The position numbers and the translations under genes were made by a program. This document shows positions 3,070-59,836 of a stretch of 64,000 bases of DNA, piece by piece. The notes beneath the pieces are model-generated. The model worked only from the letters and a program-made list of their open reading frames with translations. It searched no databases and had not been told where the DNA came from. Source of the stretch: a virus; UHGV virus genome UHGV-0023958; one strand, given 5' to 3'. Numbering within the stretch: position 1 is the first letter of the stretch; each line of letters begins with the position of its first letter.

Positions 3070-3522
3070 ATGAAATTAAAAGGTAAACAAGCAGATGCGT
3101 TTGTGGATGCTTTGTCCAAAAGTGAAAAAATGAATGAAGAAAAAGAGAGTGGATTGTGTGCTTATAAATCGATGAATATAGAAGAGATTAAAAAAGAAAT
3201 TGATTACAAGCAAAAATACAATGATTTAATTGCACATATAAATACAGTACCGTTTATCACTAGCCCGATGGGAGACCTGCCAGTTACGTCAACAACTGTC
3301 AGAAATCTTTTAGACAAGTTGATAAAAACGGAAGAAGAAAACCATAGTTTAAGTAAACAGCTTTATGATTTAAATATTTATATCAATACCATCGAAGAAA
3401 TTCAAAATAATAACACAAAACATCTTGTAGATCTAATTAAAAAGGATATTCCCAAAGAATATCATAAACAGATTGATGAAACAACTAACATATTTCTTGG
3501 AGTGCAAAATGGAAAGATCTAA
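3070..3522 (+). CDS. hypothetical protein
   Basis: ORF with SD AAGAGGAAG. Confidence 0.4.
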   Translation: MKLKGKQADAFVDALSKSEKMNEEKESGLCAYKSMNIEEIKKEIDYKQKYNDLIAHINTVPFITSPMGDLPVTSTTVRNLLDKLIKTEEENHSLSKQLYDLNIYINTIEEIQNNNTKHLVDLIKKDIPKEYHKQIDETTNIFLGVQNGKI

Positions 3523-25353: not shown

Positions 25354-25885
25354 AATGGATAAATATTTAGCAGATAACAACGAAGTAAATTATGATCTTT
25401 GTAAGAATTATTGCGACGGATATTGCTGGGAAGATCCCGATTGGTACTGTCTTTGTGATTACGAAGGATGCCAACCAATTTGTGAAGAGTATGAAAAAGA
25501 TGAAGATTGATAAATATAATGATTTTTGTGACAGGCATTGTAAATGGTGCACATCTCTTGTTTGTGATGATATAAACGATGAAGAAGCAAGAGATGGTTG
25601 TCAATATTTCAGAGATGAATTTCCAGAAGAAGTTAAAGACGTTGAATATTGGAAAGTATTAGATAAGATTTTGAGGAATAAGTAAATGAAAAGAATATTT
25701 GACGAAAATTATAAAATATTTATCAAAACTTCTAATAAATGCGGATGCAGGTTTTCTTATGAAGTGGAAGATATATGTGGGAACTGGGATCATGTATACT
25801 GCCCACGCTGTGGAAAATATTTAACTACTTACGTTTTGAAGAAGATGGAAAATATTAAAATTGATTTTAAAGAGGATTTTGGTAA

Positions 25886-49837: not shown

Positions 49838-50260
49838 ATTAATATCCTCCTATGATTTATTTAATACTTTTAAGAATTTCTAAAACTGTTACTAACTGAT
49901 TTGAGTTAGCAACGTTCGTTTCGCGGCTGTGGTCGTATAAATTATACTCATTGAGTATTCTTTCAACCTCGTTCGTGATTTCTTCGCAATCTTCGTTCCA
50001 TTGCATCATCGAACAACCTGTGGGGTAGCAATCGATTTCATCAATAATCATATAAGTTTCTCCTTTGTCCGTATAGCCGATAACACAGCTTTAATTTTTA
50101 TTTGCGAATGTCTATCCATCCACCGTTCAATACACAATAGAGCTGAGCTATTGTGATTTTGCTTGATTTAAGGACTTGGTTTAAGTCCTTAACCGTCCGA
50201 ATATTTAGTTTCTTTTTACAAAGATAACTGAATTCATGAAAATCATAAACGCAAAGCATC

Positions 50261-50731
50261 TTATTTCACCTCCTTTGTGTTATCCACATATTTCCACCAA
50301 AGCCTTGCCAACTTAAAGTACAAGACTTCGTAGTTCTTCTTCAGCCTGTCGATCGCCGTTGTGTCGTTTAGACACAACTGAACAGTTACATCATCGATAA
50401 GATCTTTGAGTTCATCATCGTCCGTCTTATCGTAAACCCGATCCAAAAATCGAACACAGGCTTTCGCAGCCTTCTCTTCGGCTGTTTTCGGTTTGGGTTG
50501 CTGCTTCGGTTTTTCTTCGGGGAAAACGATATGCAGATGCACGAGCATCTTATCGTTTTCTTTCAGACGCTGAATGGACATATCTTTTGCCCACGTAACG
50601 CCACAAAGACGTTCTTTGCACATAAACCTGTATGTGCAATTTGAACAACATTGATCATAAAGCTGTTCAACGAGCTCTCTGTTGTTTGCCTTGTTTATCA
50701 TGTTGGCAAATTTCTCTTGATAAGTATTCAT
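50261..50731 (-). CDS. hypothetical Cys-rich protein preceded by a long structured leader
   Basis: SD AATGGAGGT then ATG 50731-50729; the track's N-terminal extension lacks an SD. Confidence 0.4.
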   Translation of the reverse strand: MNTYQEKFANMINKANNRELVEQLYDQCCSNCTYRFMCKERLCGVTWAKDMSIQRLKENDKMLVHLHIVFPEEKPKQQPKPKTAEEKAAKACVRFLDRVYDKTDDDELKDLIDDVTVQLCLNDTTAIDRLKKNYEVLYFKLARLWWKYVDNTKEVK

Positions 50732-50733
50732 AA

Positions 50734-51295
50734 CAAACCTCCATTGGTTGTGCGAGGTGCGTTGCCCTTTATCGCAGTCAACCGATTTGTTTATTGGAAC
50801 ATCCGTATTGTTAAGCGGTACGGATGCAAATTCCGATTTGCCTTCAGCAGACAACACTGTTACATATTTTCAATGCAAACGCATTGGTTTTCTCCACTTA
50901 CGCTGGTACTTCCCTCGTGTTTCCTGCTCGCAAACGCACCGTTTTTTGTATCGCAACGTGCGCAGGAAATCCATACGAGGTATCACCCAACGTATTGGAA
51001 CGGAAATGCAACTGTTCCGCGAAACCGACTTTCTTTTTCTTCCTCTCGGTTAGTCTTACGGGAATACCCAAGTTCTACATCCACCAGCTTGAGACGGTGT
51101 TTCTTACATAACGAGATGTAAGTCCCATTGAAGATACTTAACGCTTGCTTCAACACAAACGAGGCTCAACCCTACCTGAAGGGGATACGCTCAACAGCTT
51201 CGTATCATCCTGTCCTCTGCATTTACACGGGCTTGGAACCGTCTTTGGCTGCATTACAGAGTGTTTTTAACGTGGTTATCACTTCCACGTGTTTT
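50734..51295 (-). ncRNA. candidate large structured RNA (long 5' leader, ORF-less intron or ncRNA)
   Basis: about 560 bp at roughly 50 percent GC versus about 33 percent in the window; no SD-preceded ORF on either strand; many local inverted repeats (ACGTGG..CCACGT, CCCCTTCAGGTAGGG, direct GTTGAGC repeat). Confidence 0.3.
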
Positions 51296-51460
51296 TCACC
51301 AACGAGTCGAGTATTTGATTACTCGAACGTTCGTATGTGTATAGTGAACAGTTCGAAGAGCTCGTTCGCCATAGCGACATTCATCTTTCAACAAGGATTT
51401 TAAATCCTCGTTGGAAGCCAAACGACCGTTGATATAGATAAGATTCATCATCTTAAGCAT
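51296..51460 (-). CDS. small ORF (54 codons) with strong SD immediately upstream of the structured region
   Basis: AAAGGAGGT -7 nt- ATG (minus strand); MLKMMNLIYINGRLASNEDLKSLLKDE..; stop TGA. Confidence 0.35.
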   Translation of the reverse strand: MLKMMNLIYINGRLASNEDLKSLLKDECRYGERALRTVHYTHTNVRVIKYSTRW

Positions 51461-51720
51461 AGGTGATACCTCCTTTAAAGTAGTGTATTACGTTACAGAG
51501 AAGAGAAAGTAACGTAATGTAATATACATTTTTTAATATATATTACACTTAAAAAAGAATATGTAGTGATCTACATCCCTTTTGAAATCCAAAAAACTCA
51601 AATTTCCAAAAAAACCGAAAATTTTTCGCTCCCGCTCACCCCACCCAAAAATTTCCAAAAAATCCCAAAAAATTCGAAATTTCCCAACCTCGTTTTCTTT
51701 CGTGCCTCCCGAACACGAGC

Positions 51721-51753
51721 GTAAATAAAAAGCCCGCACATCTTGTGCGAGCC
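51721..51753 (-). terminator. rho-independent terminator (minus strand)
   Basis: minus-strand GCUCGCACA-AGA-UGUGCGGGC then UUUUUAUUU. Confidence 0.6.
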
Positions 51754-52040
51754 TCATAAATATTTAATTTAAACTCTATCCATTTCGATTTTTACATCTC
51801 TGTTATTATCATTTAAAACTTTAAAAAACAACAAAAGATTTTCCGCTCTTGCTTCAGGCGTTTTAAAATAAATAGGATTAGAATTGGAAACAAAATCATC
51901 ATTTTTATATAAATAAATATCAATATAATACGTATTCGTTTTTACATCTTGAGCTGTACAATCATAATTTATTCTACAAATCCCGTCTTCGCCTTCTGTA
52001 AACACACAAAATCTATCTTTTCGTTCACAATATCCCTTCA

Positions 52041-52553
52041 TTAAATTTTCTCCATAATAATTTGTTTCGGTAAAAAATTCCAACAATAATACGCGCTTGA
52101 AAACGTAATCTTGTTTTGAACAACTCCGTGGTTTAAAAACTTAATACGTTTATCAAACATCAAAAGCTGCAAATCTTTTTTCATAAACAACTGTTTCGGA
52201 GCAGAATCATTAAGCCACGTAAGTGCCATAAGTAACGCGAACGGTTTATTGAAACTCAACGCTCTCTCAAAAATATGTCTCTTTCCAGAAAACGGAGGGT
52301 TTGAAATAATACAATCCCAATGTTCAGACGGCTCATATTCATAAAAATTTTCATTATTTTCGATATGCGTTGCAATTACTTTATTGCCATTTGCTTTGAT
52401 TTGTTTTACAAACTCACTATCTTCTTTGTCGAACGGGCACCAAACCGCCCAATCTTTCGGGACATATTTAATAATTGGTTTCACGGCGTAATCAGGAGTA
52501 TAACATTCATTATTGTTTCCCTGACTATATAAAACTTTCTGACTATCAATCAT
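52041..52553 (-). CDS. small phage-type DNA N6-adenine methyltransferase
   Basis: motif IV IISNPPFSGK; CYTPDYAV N-terminal region; about 170 aa, as in small phage Dam-type MTases. Confidence 0.5.
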   Translation of the reverse strand: MIDSQKVLYSQGNNNECYTPDYAVKPIIKYVPKDWAVWCPFDKEDSEFVKQIKANGNKVIATHIENNENFYEYEPSEHWDCIISNPPFSGKRHIFERALSFNKPFALLMALTWLNDSAPKQLFMKKDLQLLMFDKRIKFLNHGVVQNKITFSSAYYCWNFLPKQIIMEKI

Positions 52554-53518: not shown

Positions 53519-56329
53519 TTATTCATAAACAATTTCTCCGTCTTCGTTTATTAAGAAACTTTGCGCCTCTTTTGAAATAAGCATAAGTTTATACTTTCTT
53601 CCAAGGAATTCTTCGCCGTCTTCACATTCAATTGGCACGTATGTTTGTTTTTGTTCGATACAGTCGAGTATGTCATCACCAAGTATCTGCCAGGCAAAAT
53701 CCCAATTGAATTTCGTATATGATTGCGATAAAGCTTTAATATATGTCAACGTTTCCATCGTGGTAAGTTCGAGCGTCATCAAATCATTTTGAATTTCTTC
53801 TTTGATGATGTCGAGATAACCAAATCTTATGTCTTTAAAATCTTCATCGTCAACATCGAAATAAATGCTGTTAATAAGAGTGATTGCTTTTTTATTGCAG
53901 TATTTACGATACATATCGCGGAACTTTTGAAGAATATCTGGAATTATGATATAAGAATTTAAATCGTAATATGGAAGCATGCTTGTGCAGTTTTTATTAT
54001 ATTTAATATCAAAATCGATAGATTCGATATCACGACATAATAAATTCATCGTACAGTTTGTATTGATAAGTGGAAGAAACTTATGATATTTTTTTACAAA
54101 ATCATTCTCTTCTTTTGTTTTATTCTCTTTTATAAGAAGTTTTTTAAGTTTCTTTCCGAACATACATTTTGATGTTTCGTTATACGTATTTTCGTATTTC
54201 TTATATTTTTCGTTTAATTCTGGATATAAGTATCTAAAGAAATAAGGTTTTTTGGAAATAACGAGTGAATTATGATAATATTTTTCTTTTCTTTGCTCTT
54301 CTGTATCATCTTTGTCGATTTTCCAGATTTTAAGCCATTCGTCCTTCGGAGGACCTTTGGCTTCAACGCCTTTAATTCTGTCAATTTCCTGACCGTTGAT
54401 TTCTCGAAGAAGTTTTATGCGAAGCAGAAGCTCTTCCCGTTGCTTTTTTTGCTCTGGACGCTGGAACATCGGTAACATTGCTTCAATAATCGTTGAATAA
54501 TTACTGTAAGTTCCAACTTTTGTACCGAACCCACGAATATCTGTTTCTATGAAGTTTCTATGACAAATTTTGTGAGAAGGTGCCGGTTGTTTTTTATATG
54601 TGATAGGATTTGTATAATCTTTCATCGAACCTTTTAAAAATATCGGATTATTTGTGCTCATACAAATATCACCGTCAAAATCACTGTCTGAGTGTCGGAG
54701 TGTACTTAAATCATATATTGAATAAACAATCCCGCTTTCAATCCATTTGTACCATTTTGTTGTTTCTTCATTATCAAACAATTTGCAATGATTTATCTCG
54801 TGTTTATCAAGAAGTGGAGAGCGACAGAGAACTATTTCATCGCCAATATTTGCGCGATTTTTCCAGAAATTCGAATAAAAATGCTCACCGGGTAACACTC
54901 CGACGGGTGGCAATCCTAACGCGCTTTGACACTGTGCTATCGGATCGGAAATCATAAACGAATAATTTCCTTTAACCCATATTTTTCCAATTTTCGATTT
55001 ATTGATTGATTCAACTATGTTTTTGTAAATTTTTCTTTGGACATAAGAATCTTTTAAAAATTCTGGATTTTTTACAACCGCTTTCATAGCAAGGTTTTGC
55101 GCTCTTGTGTATACGTCAGAATATTCAATTTCCATATCTTGATTGAACCCACCGAGCGAATATAACATAGCATATAAATCATCTCCGCTACAAACTTTCT
55201 GAAGCCAATCGATGGTAGGTTGAATTAATTCTTTAACATCTTGTTCTTTTATATTTAAAACTTGAATATATTGATAATTTGCAAGAACCCATTCGTCATC
55301 ATATTTTTTGTTGTATCTAGATACACCCCATCCGATGTTATATTTAGTGGCATATGAATCAAAATCTTCCCAACTTGAATAAGCTTTGTATTCTTTAAAT
55401 TGACTTTCTGAAATCAAACAGTCTATATCTTCTATTTTATGTGGTATTCCCCATCTATCATAAATAACAGATATATTATACTCAGCTGCATACGCTTTAA
55501 AATCGAACGGAACGAGATTTCCTTTGATAAACACGGAGCGAACAACGTACGAACTGGCAACATAATCAAGCCCCATTTCCTCAGACCATTTCATTGCCAT
55601 TTCTGGAGAAACAAGCCCCTGTCCGTCACAGCTATTCATTGTTACGTCTTGGACTCTTTCCTCTACTGCCTTTTTCCCATCTTCTGTGTTTATAATCCAA
55701 TCGATTTTTTGATCTTTCAGTGTTGTTTCAAAATCTTTGATTATACAAACACGTGGTTTCGAAACCCACATTATCGAAGATGTTGAAAGAGAGAAATACG
55801 CAGACAGTTTGGCAATATTTGTTTCTTCGAGACGATTATTCAAATCGCACATCAAACGCGTAAATAATTCTTCGTAAATGCGCTCCGAACAGAATTGTAC
55901 CGTATTGTGTCTGATTTGTCCTGCACTGGCACTAAAACGAACATATCTTACACCGTTTAAATAAAACCCTGCTTTTGCAAGCCTTCTATATTCCGATTTT
56001 TTATTTACGGTAACAAGAACAAAATCTTTAACAAATAACTTATTTAAAATTGCATACCAGAATATTCTCGCATCTTTTGCTCTACCTTCTTTCTTTGCAC
56101 GTCTCATCGATCCACGAAGAAATTCTATTTCTTTAAATATCTCATGATGATTTCGATTATCGCCATTGATAAAACGAGCTTGTTGAAAAGCGATGTTATC
56201 TCCGAGTGAAACAAGATTTCCGTCCAAAGCAGCCTGTCTAGCATCGTATGATGGTATATCGAGGTTGTTTTCACAAATAAACTTTGAAGACAACTTTATA
56301 ATTTGATATAAAACTTGTTCGCGAGCCAT
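53519..56329 (-). CDS. putative YonO-like / two-barrel single-subunit RNA polymerase
   Basis: 936-aa protein with HSDSDFDGD (plus coords 54668-54682), matching the DxDGD metal-binding motif (NADFDGD in beta-prime; DxDGD in YonO/QDE-1-type RNAPs); translationally coupled TAATG with the upstream kinase. Confidence 0.5.
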   Translation of the reverse strand: MAREQVLYQIIKLSSKFICENNLDIPSYDARQAALDGNLVSLGDNIAFQQARFINGDNRNHHEIFKEIEFLRGSMRRAKKEGRAKDARIFWYAILNKLFVKDFVLVTVNKKSEYRRLAKAGFYLNGVRYVRFSASAGQIRHNTVQFCSERIYEELFTRLMCDLNNRLEETNIAKLSAYFSLSTSSIMWVSKPRVCIIKDFETTLKDQKIDWIINTEDGKKAVEERVQDVTMNSCDGQGLVSPEMAMKWSEEMGLDYVASSYVVRSVFIKGNLVPFDFKAYAAEYNISVIYDRWGIPHKIEDIDCLISESQFKEYKAYSSWEDFDSYATKYNIGWGVSRYNKKYDDEWVLANYQYIQVLNIKEQDVKELIQPTIDWLQKVCSGDDLYAMLYSLGGFNQDMEIEYSDVYTRAQNLAMKAVVKNPEFLKDSYVQRKIYKNIVESINKSKIGKIWVKGNYSFMISDPIAQCQSALGLPPVGVLPGEHFYSNFWKNRANIGDEIVLCRSPLLDKHEINHCKLFDNEETTKWYKWIESGIVYSIYDLSTLRHSDSDFDGDICMSTNNPIFLKGSMKDYTNPITYKKQPAPSHKICHRNFIETDIRGFGTKVGTYSNYSTIIEAMLPMFQRPEQKKQREELLLRIKLLREINGQEIDRIKGVEAKGPPKDEWLKIWKIDKDDTEEQRKEKYYHNSLVISKKPYFFRYLYPELNEKYKKYENTYNETSKCMFGKKLKKLLIKENKTKEENDFVKKYHKFLPLINTNCTMNLLCRDIESIDFDIKYNKNCTSMLPYYDLNSYIIIPDILQKFRDMYRKYCNKKAITLINSIYFDVDDEDFKDIRFGYLDIIKEEIQNDLMTLELTTMETLTYIKALSQSYTKFNWDFAWQILGDDILDCIEQKQTYVPIECEDGEEFLGRKYKLMLISKEAQSFLINEDGEIVYE

Positions 56330-59760: not shown

Positions 59761-59836
59761 GCTTTCATGGCTCAATTGGTAGAGCATTTGATTTGTAATC
59801 AAAGGATTCTCGGTTCAAGTCCGAGTGGAAGCTCCA
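59761..59836 (+). tRNA. tRNA-Thr (anticodon UGU), CCA encoded
   Basis: cloverleaf: acceptor GCTTTCA/TGGAAGC, D-stem GCTC/GAGC, anticodon stem TTTGA/TCAAA with loop TTTGTAA, T-arm CTCGG-TTCAAGT-CCGAG, discriminator T then CCA. Confidence 0.7.

Follow-up and report, generated by a model that had tools for sequence, protein, structure and literature searches.

A predicted twister ribozyme fused to a large conserved RNA in a non-coding cassette of a gut phage

Between a 54-codon ORF and a Cys-rich 156-codon ORF of the gut phage genome UHGV-0023958 lies a gap of 564 nt on the minus strand (51295..50732) that is free of ORFs, which raises the question of what this stretch encodes, if not protein. 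Within the 64,000 nt analysed here, referred to as the window, the gap is distinguished by its composition: the GC content is 0.445-0.495 across 50800-51299 (200-nt windows), compared to 0.26-0.39 upstream (51400-52300), 0.33-0.39 further downstream and about 35% for the phage. Every gene adjoining the gap is located on the minus strand. The ORFs inside the gap lack ribosome-binding sites on both strands and are broken in related phages through indels of 1, 2, 4 and 13-14 nt, and the substitutions are distributed 31/34/31 by position modulo 3 (p = 0.91), thus lacking a three-base periodicity. An initial annotation, made from the DNA letters, had described a GC-enriched and ORF-free region of about 560 bp, which is borne out by the GC profile, the missing ribosome-binding sites and the indels of the relatives. 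It had further called the region structured, in agreement with a predicted folding energy of -166.4 kcal/mol, which is better than that of dinucleotide shuffles (z = -2.2; one of 100 shuffles was equally good). As judged from sequence comparison, the gap is a non-coding RNA cassette of a gut phage and is neither an intron nor junk. The features of the locus are as follows; designations beginning with L refer to related phage loci.

51520..51755, minus strand: upstream control region with terminator, phased T-tracts and palindrome
51755..51729, minus strand: terminator of the upstream control region
51706..51585, minus strand: phased T-tracts of the upstream control region
51555..51520, minus strand: palindrome GTGTAATATATATTAAAAAATGTATATTACAT, promoter-like, directly abutting the cassette in L031
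51296..51460, minus strand: 54-codon gene (upstream context), with AAAGGAGG 7 nt before the ATG
51290..51270, minus strand: 5' hairpin P0, ACGUGG/CCACGU with a 9-nt loop, first element of the cassette
51260..51209, minus strand: minimal type-P1 twister consisting of P1, P2 and P4 only, predicted cut U51256/A51255
51206..50795, minus strand: large structured RNA of 412 nt, reaching 428 nt in relatives whose H10 is longer
51103..51122, minus strand: helix H5, 7 bp with a variable loop; one pair is G-C (17), A-U (3) or G-U (2)
51067..51093, minus strand: helix H6, hairpin of 8 bp with a variable loop of 11 nt
51025..51064, minus strand: H-type pseudoknot, S1 UUCC/GGAA, S2 CCGA/UCGG, A-rich third loop
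50893..50999, minus strand: long arm H9, four segments with about 35 bp in total
50870..50887, minus strand: hairpin H10, 18 nt here and 31-32 nt in eight of 22 copies
50796..50834, minus strand: 3' terminal hairpin H13, 9 + 3 bp, end of the cassette
50732..50794, minus strand: leader hairpin and ribosome-binding site of the next ORF, outside the cassette
50261..50731, minus strand: 156-aa Cys-rich gene (downstream context), GGAGG before the ATG, seven Cys in 156 aa

The two ORFs that border the gap had been correctly recognized before, the one at 51460..51296 by an ideal SD and the one at 50731..50261 as Cys-rich. The 54-codon protein is kept in relatives and its DNA changes are mostly synonymous; by this pattern, the ORF is a real gene and not an exon. 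The 156-aa protein belongs to a family of 125 clusters reaching down to 54% identity, whose members occur with or without the RNA described below. It has no match in Pfam or PHROG, and nothing was matched by tblastn against phages; an AlphaFold (AF2) model predicts an all-helical protein (pLDDT 72), for which comparison to the folds in the PDB gave no significant match. Pfam and PHROG scans of the neighboring small proteins were similarly uninformative. The phage encodes an RNA polymerase of 936 aa of the YonO / eukaryotic-RdRP-like type (Pfam PF05183), and as its cultured relatives infect Bacillus, Clostridium, Enterocloster and Thomasclavelia, the host is probably a gut Firmicute, with Clostridia suggested by the relatives of the polymerase. 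The control region upstream of the 54-codon gene is 66-85% conserved in all relatives, even in those with a different RNA cargo, and no sigma-70 consensus promoter was recognized in it. The palindrome was also considered as a repeated promoter motif and rejected as such, since 21 matches with up to three mismatches in the window compare to 25 expected.

The gap had been proposed to be an ORF-less self-splicing intron that splits one gene, a reading that would account for a GC-rich, ORF-free segment between two ORFs of the same strand, and a group I intron is indeed present elsewhere in the related phage L025. We weighed this reading against a permissive scan of positions 50200-51800 with Rfam 15 (E <= 10), in which, beyond a twister, no group I or group II intron, ROOL, GOLLD, HEARO, OLE or other ribozyme was found; a scan of the whole window at E <= 0.05 yielded no match to ROOL or GOLLD either. 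The negative result of the permissive scan is meaningful because the scan recovered HEARO (132 bits, L026), the group I intron (70.6 bits, L025) and a pistol ribozyme (63 bits) in related phages. Likewise, reading the gap sequence revealed neither GUGYG nor a hairpin with a 2-nt bulge resembling domain V, so that the earlier failure to find group I or group II signatures by eye was correct, and the Rfam scan is equally devoid of them. The element resembles an ORF-less group I intron in size range, GC enrichment and phage setting, but there is no match to a P1-P10 core, no exon continuity, and its 5' end is formed by a twister instead of a P1 or a 5' splice site. The flanking ORFs possess their own ribosome-binding sites. 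Of the other 21 distinct copies, 16 carry a further ORF between the 54-codon ORF and the RNA, and in four copies a 69-codon ORF separates the RNA from the 156-codon gene. As other ORFs intervene and the 156-aa family also occurs in RNA-less phages, the two ORFs are independent genes and not exons, and the suggestion that they might join into one conserved protein does not hold. We thus consider an intron at this position to be extremely improbable.

The single Rfam match is a twister of type P1 that covers the full model (1-68) with 57.5 bits, corresponding to E = 6.7e-12 in the 1.6 kb of positions 50200-51800 and to 2.7e-10 over the 64-kb window and 4227 families. The score is under the Rfam gathering threshold of 67.2 bits because the optional hairpin P3 is missing and a short CAAAG segment is in its place. 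This ribozyme at 51260..51209 had been overlooked in the initial annotation, and it is the most informative feature of the region. The three stems are P1 UCUGU/ACAGG, to which most relatives add a U-A pair, P2 UGCA/UGCA and P4 ACGG/CCGU. Pairing in these stems is 100% across the 22 sequences; P1 varies once (G-U/G-C), as does P4 (C-G/U-G). The internal loops are found at the consensus positions of the P1 permutation, only the optional P3 hairpin being deleted, and the core blocks UAA, GC.GCC, GGU.CCAAGCCCG, UAAA and GAGG are all there. G51217 aligns with the catalytic G45 when the twister of the window is compared to the Osa-1-4 sequence, whose U6-A7 numbering agrees with PMC6154101.

The consensus is departed from at two positions only, by a C-to-U change in GGUCCC, giving GGU[U]CC, and by a G-to-A change in GAGGG, giving GAGG[A]. 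Both changes are mutually complementary, would form a U-A in place of a C-G pair, and recur in the independent twister of the more distant phage L023. The two segments are presumably partners in the twister pseudoknot T1. More generally, potential partners for the pseudoknots T1 and T2, which connect the P4 loop with the internal loops, are present. Compared to the type-P1 consensus, the element thus differs by the presumed U/A pair in the position of C/G and by its score below the gathering threshold, and its activity is a prediction. P3 is missing from about 22% of twisters, and the crystallised minimal form of Osa-1-4 is devoid of P0, P3 and P5 (PMC6154101). Stem order, the U-A cleavage dinucleotide and the absence of P3 are shared between the phage twister and Osa-1-4, as are the blocks GCC, CCAAGCCC, UAAA and GAGG and a guanine at the G45 position. 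In contrast to Osa-1-4, the phage twister is fused straight to the structured RNA of 412 nt. Cleavage would most likely occur between U51256 and A51255. In two of the 22 variants the twister is seemingly disabled: that of L039/L040 carries a C-to-A change in the CCAAGCCC loop together with a G-to-U change at the equivalent of the catalytic G45, and that of L007 has lost one nucleotide of the CCAAGCCC loop (one A of CCAAGCC). The large RNA is intact in both, and since variants with a disabled-looking twister keep it, cleavage may not be indispensable.

The RNA that follows is predicted to comprise about 15 helices and one H-type pseudoknot, and has loops with the self-complementary sequences AGCU and UGCA. 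Its structure was curated on an alignment (A3) of 22 distinct sequences with a mean column identity of 94% and amounts to 118 pairs that are distributed over 20 helices, with P0 and the twister stems P1, P2 and P4 counted in; 99.3% of the alignment cells are paired. Nine pairs are changed on both sides, a number that was reached by none of 500 column shuffles (mean 3.9), while sliding the partners by 1-3 columns left 0-2 compensated pairs; this covariation rests on few events, as the copies are all at least 92% identical and belong to one phage lineage. Variation is located in loops, in hairpins of variable length and in compensated pairs. In H6, a U-A pair is replaced by C-G in L010 and L031, and the copy in the window represents a C.A intermediate. 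The most extensive change affects the pseudoknot of L004, in which a segment of 50 nt is replaced: S1 becomes GACC/GGUC, corresponding to two compensated pairs, and S2 is retained and one pair longer. Similarly, two compensated pairs arise in L031 and L035, where UUUCCUGC/GCAGGAAA of H9 is exchanged for UUCCUUGC/GCAAGGAA; L010 and L030 carry G-U intermediates of this segment. H9 also contains a symmetric 6x6 internal loop, GUGAUA/GAAGUA, which by eye resembles a loop-E or sarcin-ricin motif. For H10, at least three versions of the stem exist (CCAAUGC/GCAUUGG, CCAGCAA/UUGUUGG and a long form of 12 bp), and its closing pair is seen as A-U, G-U, C-G and U-G. Changes in H13 are limited to G-U to A-U and G-C to G-U. 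Some pairings put forward by RNAalifold were rejected as they are broken by substitutions, namely the long-range pairings of AACAC, located before the twister, with GUGUU and of UUCAAUG with CAUUGAA, and that of GAGCCUC with the downstream ribosome-binding site. Taken together, we hold with high confidence that the gap harbors a twister along with a genuine structured RNA. As the whole fold is under strong purifying selection, the large RNA most likely acts through its three-dimensional structure, be it by offering a binding platform, by forming an RNA-only assembly or by catalysis as a ribozyme.

Copies of the cassette were gathered by IMG/VR searches with the 156-aa protein and with the RNA polymerase, and further ones by searching a protein database with the translation of a spurious antisense ORF and metagenome contigs with a 26-mer of the RNA. 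This resulted in 39 locus entries, some of which were the same contig fetched again, corresponding to 22 distinct sequences from pig-gut, human-gut and viral metagenomes. The boundaries of the cassette are sharp and identical in all 22 distinct copies, in five upstream and three downstream contexts. At the 5' side it begins with ACACGUGG. This start lies 3-6 nt past the stop codon of the upstream ORF, of which there are four different ones, and in L031 it abuts the promoter-like palindrome without an ORF in between; the stem of P0 is invariant and its loop variable among the copies. At the 3' side it ends with GGAUGUUCCA, followed by the shared leader of the 156-aa or the 69-aa ORF. In L011 the sequence diverges completely just past H13 and continues with an unrelated leader, in L037 a member of the 156-aa family is preceded by the last hairpin of the RNA only, and RNA-less phages share sequence solely from CCAUCAAAC onward.

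The distinct copies are 92-97% identical to that of the window, whereas the nucleotide identity of the adjacent protein gene amounts to 74-94%, and the two values are uncorrelated. This pattern indicates strong constraint or recent exchange, if not both. The cassette might be a selfish or neutral recombination module that has spread recently, its identity reflecting horizontal exchange and the twister being a mere conserved linker. Consistent with this possibility are the independence of RNA identity from the divergence of the neighboring gene and the highly mosaic locus, whose modules are swapped at sharp boundaries. The distribution is narrow as well: the 26-mer recovered eight metagenome loci, none of 185,579 species genomes contained a copy, and an N-masked pattern of the RNA in IMG/VR yielded nothing beyond the 11 related contigs already found. 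Scans of IMG/VR with masked stems or other motifs led back to these 11 contigs or to random hits, which did not withstand nhmmer, and a more distant copy turned up in none of the searches. The translated antisense ORF gave six clusters, all of close relatives, in a database of 5.8 billion proteins, and blastn in distant mode with the region gave no match in 50,697 phage records. In the distant phages L023-L029, which share the RNA polymerase family, nhmmer profiles of the alignment detected no homologue of the large RNA and a twister in L023 only. However, the changes are not randomly placed but fall into loops, compensated pairs and length-variable hairpins whose stems are preserved, and the pseudoknot of L004 maintains both stems despite the wholesale replacement of its segment. 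Constraint is therefore favored, and we regard a passively spreading module as improbable.

The second proposal of the initial annotation, a large phage ncRNA comparable to ROOL or GOLLD, is upheld in so far as the RNA is large, conserved and covarying, while the absence of a model match and of adjacent tRNAs speaks against this kinship. ROOL and GOLLD are phage or prophage RNAs whose function is unexplained (PMC12286853, PMC5737381). The RNA of the window is likewise encoded by a phage, extends over hundreds of nucleotides, and has many helices, a pseudoknot and no known protein partner, features from which a divergent member of a described family (ROOL, GOLLD, HEARO, OLE or raiA) might be suspected. 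With 412 nt it is smaller than ROOL (581 nt on average) and many GOLLD members (>800 nt). ROOL and GOLLD often reside beside tRNA islands and occur in several phyla, whereas the RNA described here is not located beside such islands and appears confined to one narrow phage lineage, where it carries a predicted self-cleaving ribozyme at its 5' side. A gathering-threshold Rfam scan of the window detected nothing but a single tRNA-Thr, which is encoded on the other strand at 59761-59836, about 8.5 kb from the RNA. No match in sequence or structure to ROOL or GOLLD was obtained; with permissive filters and E <= 10 over 1.6 kb the twister is the only one of the Rfam 15 families to match, and the HEARO model, which gives 132 bits on L026, gives none here. 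No IscB-like ORF was found near the region by Pfam and PHROG scans of the neighbors. Membership in one of these families is thus very improbable. By analogy, size, pseudoknot, near-invariant junctions and phage origin would place the RNA functionally beside ROOL and GOLLD as a member of neither family.

A different comparison is provided by theta ribozymes, minimal HDV-like ribozymes that in gut phages sit directly against tRNAs (PMC10879173). In both cases a small ribozyme of a gut phage is located against a structured ncRNA, and its cleavage would define one end of that RNA. In contrast to theta ribozymes, which lie 3' of the tRNA, the present ribozyme is a twister and not HDV-like, its partner is a large RNA instead of a tRNA, and it is positioned 5' of this partner.

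Based on these findings, we propose that the twister-fused cassette is processed into an RNA of about 460 nt with a twister cap, which is either free or the 5' domain of an mRNA; to this overall picture we assign a probability of roughly 55%. Transcription of the minus strand would enter from a unit that starts past the terminator at 51755..51729, at or near the start of the operon. The twister would then cleave co-transcriptionally between U51256 and A51255 and leave the upstream mRNA with a 2',3'-cyclic phosphate 14 nt past the P0 hairpin, which would stay on this upstream product. The downstream RNA would begin with a 5'-OH buried in the compact twister fold, giving rise to a twister-capped product of about 460 nt (51255..50795). 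This product might be trimmed free as a discrete ncRNA or might stay on the downstream mRNA as its 5' domain; at the 3' end of the cassette, the window contains neither a terminator nor another ribozyme. That the large RNA acts as a discrete RNA has, in our estimation, slightly less than an even chance.

If the RNA remains attached, it might function in cis as a 5' untranslated leader of the downstream operon, that is, of the 69-aa and 156-aa genes and beyond. It could then stabilize the 5'-OH end against 5' exonucleases, affect the polymerase in an antitermination-like fashion or sense a ligand. The cassette keeps a constant orientation and is always followed by the same leader and ribosome-binding site, and its unit comes after a terminator and may start a transcription unit. 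As the twister is positioned 5' of the RNA and neither a terminator nor a ribozyme occurs at the 3' side, the RNA would remain joined to the downstream message after cleavage. On the other hand, the leader at 50732..50794 is nearly identical in L036, L041 and L042, which lack the RNA, and precedes either the 69-aa or the 156-aa ORF. The downstream genes and their ribosome-binding site are similarly unchanged in phages without the RNA or with an alternative RNA of about 1.1 kb, and since they are present unchanged in its absence, they do not depend on the cassette. Moreover, a length of 412 nt with about 15 helices is far bigger than that of known leaders, and the twister-like element of the alternative RNA is located at the 3' end, where it would detach the RNA from the downstream message. 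We thus view a leader function as possible but rather doubtful, and prefer the processing of the cassette into a twister-capped RNA.

Related phages likewise carry ribozymes between the genes of this operon. In place of the window cassette, L036, L041 and L042 carry the different ORF-free RNA of about 1.1 kb (1188-2333 in L042), which shows 78.6% identity between L036 and L042 with many visible compensated changes and has a twister-P5-like element at its 3' end. L031, L037, L039 and L042 possess a type I hammerhead with a covarying stem II between the 69-aa and 156-aa ORFs, L036 a pistol ribozyme about 90 nt upstream of a 158-aa homologue, and L023 a twister after a different small ORF, 80 nt before the next ORF and without the large RNA. 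Bacterial ribozymes of these classes have been reported to cluster together near phage genes, which is unexplained (PMC6765202). As in the published clusters of hammerhead, twister, pistol and hatchet ribozymes, unrelated classes occupy interchangeable intergenic positions of the same operon. Beyond these clusters, the positions are precise here, as the ribozymes come just behind small ORFs, precede the next ORF by 60-90 nt or occupy the ends of large ncRNAs. This precision suggests that the ribozymes might dice the transcripts of these operons.

Known large RNAs include the rRNAs, RNase P, the group I and group II introns and, lately, ROOL and GOLLD. To our knowledge, new large and intricately folded RNAs of bacteria or phages are rare, and the known ones are all biochemically remarkable. 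In the literature searched, we found no description of a large RNA directly fused to a 5' twister. The predicted twister adds a new member to a known class, and the large RNA matches no described family. It is tempting to speculate that the 412-nt RNA represents a new class of functional phage RNA, either a ribozyme or a ROOL/GOLLD-like RNA-only assembly, with a 5' end made by the twister, an idea that we rate as unlikely and offer as a conjecture.

What twister, hammerhead and pistol ribozymes do in bacteria and phages has been unsettled since their discovery (PMC6765202). Together with the cassette, the second, unrelated and conserved RNA of about 1.1 kb that occupies this site in related phages points in the same direction, as do the ribozymes of the hammerhead, pistol and twister classes between neighboring genes. 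If this holds true, the purpose of the self-cleaving ribozymes would be to dice phage operon transcripts into defined ncRNAs and single-gene messages, and the diced products would bear 5'-OH and cyclic-phosphate ends. The locus offers a testable arrangement in this respect, as it combines a 5' twister on a conserved large RNA with natural variants in which the ribozyme appears to be disabled and with sister phages whose equivalent positions are taken by other classes of ribozyme and by another giant RNA. Confirmation of the cleavage would provide direct evidence that ribozymes serve as RNA-processing punctuation in phage operons.

In related phages without the window RNA, the site of the window cassette, a 5' hairpin followed by a minimal twister-P1 ribozyme and the structured large RNA, is taken by a different RNA, about 1.1 kb long, GC-rich and free of ORFs, which is a candidate giant ncRNA. 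On the following contigs it directly follows the terminator and T-tracts that are shared with the window:

L042, 1188-2333
L036, 476-1614
L041, 1-553

The L036 and L042 copies share 78.6% identity and, as judged by eye, changes in the stems are compensated in many places. At the end of the RNA lies a twister-P5-like element (32.8 bits, E 1e-4); Rfam gave no other match for this RNA, and a 29-mer search of IMG/VR did not retrieve it.

Rearrangement was also observed within the large RNA of the window cassette. On contig L037 (100-470), GAAAUAUGUAACAGU and GGCAAAGCGG of this RNA are separated by an inserted 83-aa ORF, and the RNA's 5' part is replaced by unrelated sequence, which includes a further hammerhead-like element (1-60). 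This arrangement shows that the locus is highly mosaic. Natural variation affects the cassette twister:

L039/L040, 2124-2175: C-to-A in the CCAAGCCC loop and G-to-U at the equivalent of G45, the catalytic guanine of the Osa-1-4 twister
L007, about 3460-3510: 1-nt deletion in CCAAGCC

The changes in both variants concern catalytic or core positions of the ribozyme, and in both the large RNA is intact. Two of its helices, H1 and H8, carry self-complementary tetranucleotides in their loops, AGCU in H1 (window 51184-51206, minus strand; CAGCUG in L004) and UGCA in H8 (window 51000-51020, minus strand); the H1 palindrome is missing in L031. Both could form symmetric kissing loops, and such putative contacts would be of the same sort as those holding together the oligomers of ROOL and GOLLD.

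Additional ribozymes were identified around the cassette in the relatives. A custom pattern scan detected type I hammerheads, all of them placed between the 69-aa ORF and the Cys-rich 156-aa gene downstream:

L031, 2690..2648, minus strand
L039, 2883-2925
L037, 742-784
L042, 2883-2925

All have the motif order CUGAUGAG or CUGAAGAG ... CGAAAC ... GUC|GGGG, and stem II covaries (GUCUU/AAGAC versus GUCUC/GAGAC). These elements were not picked up by Rfam at E <= 0.1, and the window contains no type I hammerhead. Two further ribozymes were matched in relatives:

L036, 2844-2910: pistol ribozyme (63.1 bits, over its gathering score)
L023, 17470-17524: second twister-P1 (44.5 bits)

Roughly 90 nt separate the pistol from the most distant homologue of the 156-aa gene (54% identical), which lies downstream of it. 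The L023 twister-P1 comes directly after an unrelated 65-aa ORF, with the next ORF 80 nt further on, and has no large RNA attached; the RNA polymerase of this phage is 73% identical to that of the window phage. Other RNA matches in related phages and in the window were the following:

L026, 10349-10567: HEARO RNA (132 bits)
L025, 64-397: group I intron (70.6 bits)
L023, 853-889: abiF RNA (46 bits)
Window 25568-25639, plus strand: RT-6 RNA motif, matched weakly (28.5 bits, gathering score 46.7, E 0.04)

The polymerase and the region preceding the cassette comprise these window features:

53519-56329, minus strand: 936-aa ORF (Pfam RdRP PF05183, E 2e-10)
51585-51706, minus strand: phased T-tracts with TTTTTTGGG recurring at intervals of about 11 nt
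51520-51555, minus strand: palindrome GTGTAATATATATTAAAAAATGTATATTACAT, following the T-tracts

The 936-aa ORF encodes a single-subunit RNA polymerase of the YonO/crAss type, and its relatives are found in SPbeta-like, C. botulinum c-st, Enterocloster and Thomasclavelia phages. Matches to it extend over 3.0-3.95 kb in L023-L029 instead of 2.8 kb, suggesting insertions in the gene, perhaps an intron or intein. The roughly 11-nt recurrence of the T-tracts suggests bent DNA. No sigma-70 consensus promoter was found in the T-tract and palindrome region (51520-51706), and within the window the palindrome does not recur. Both elements are kept in all relatives, and one possible role of the region is that of promoter or operator for the phage polymerase.
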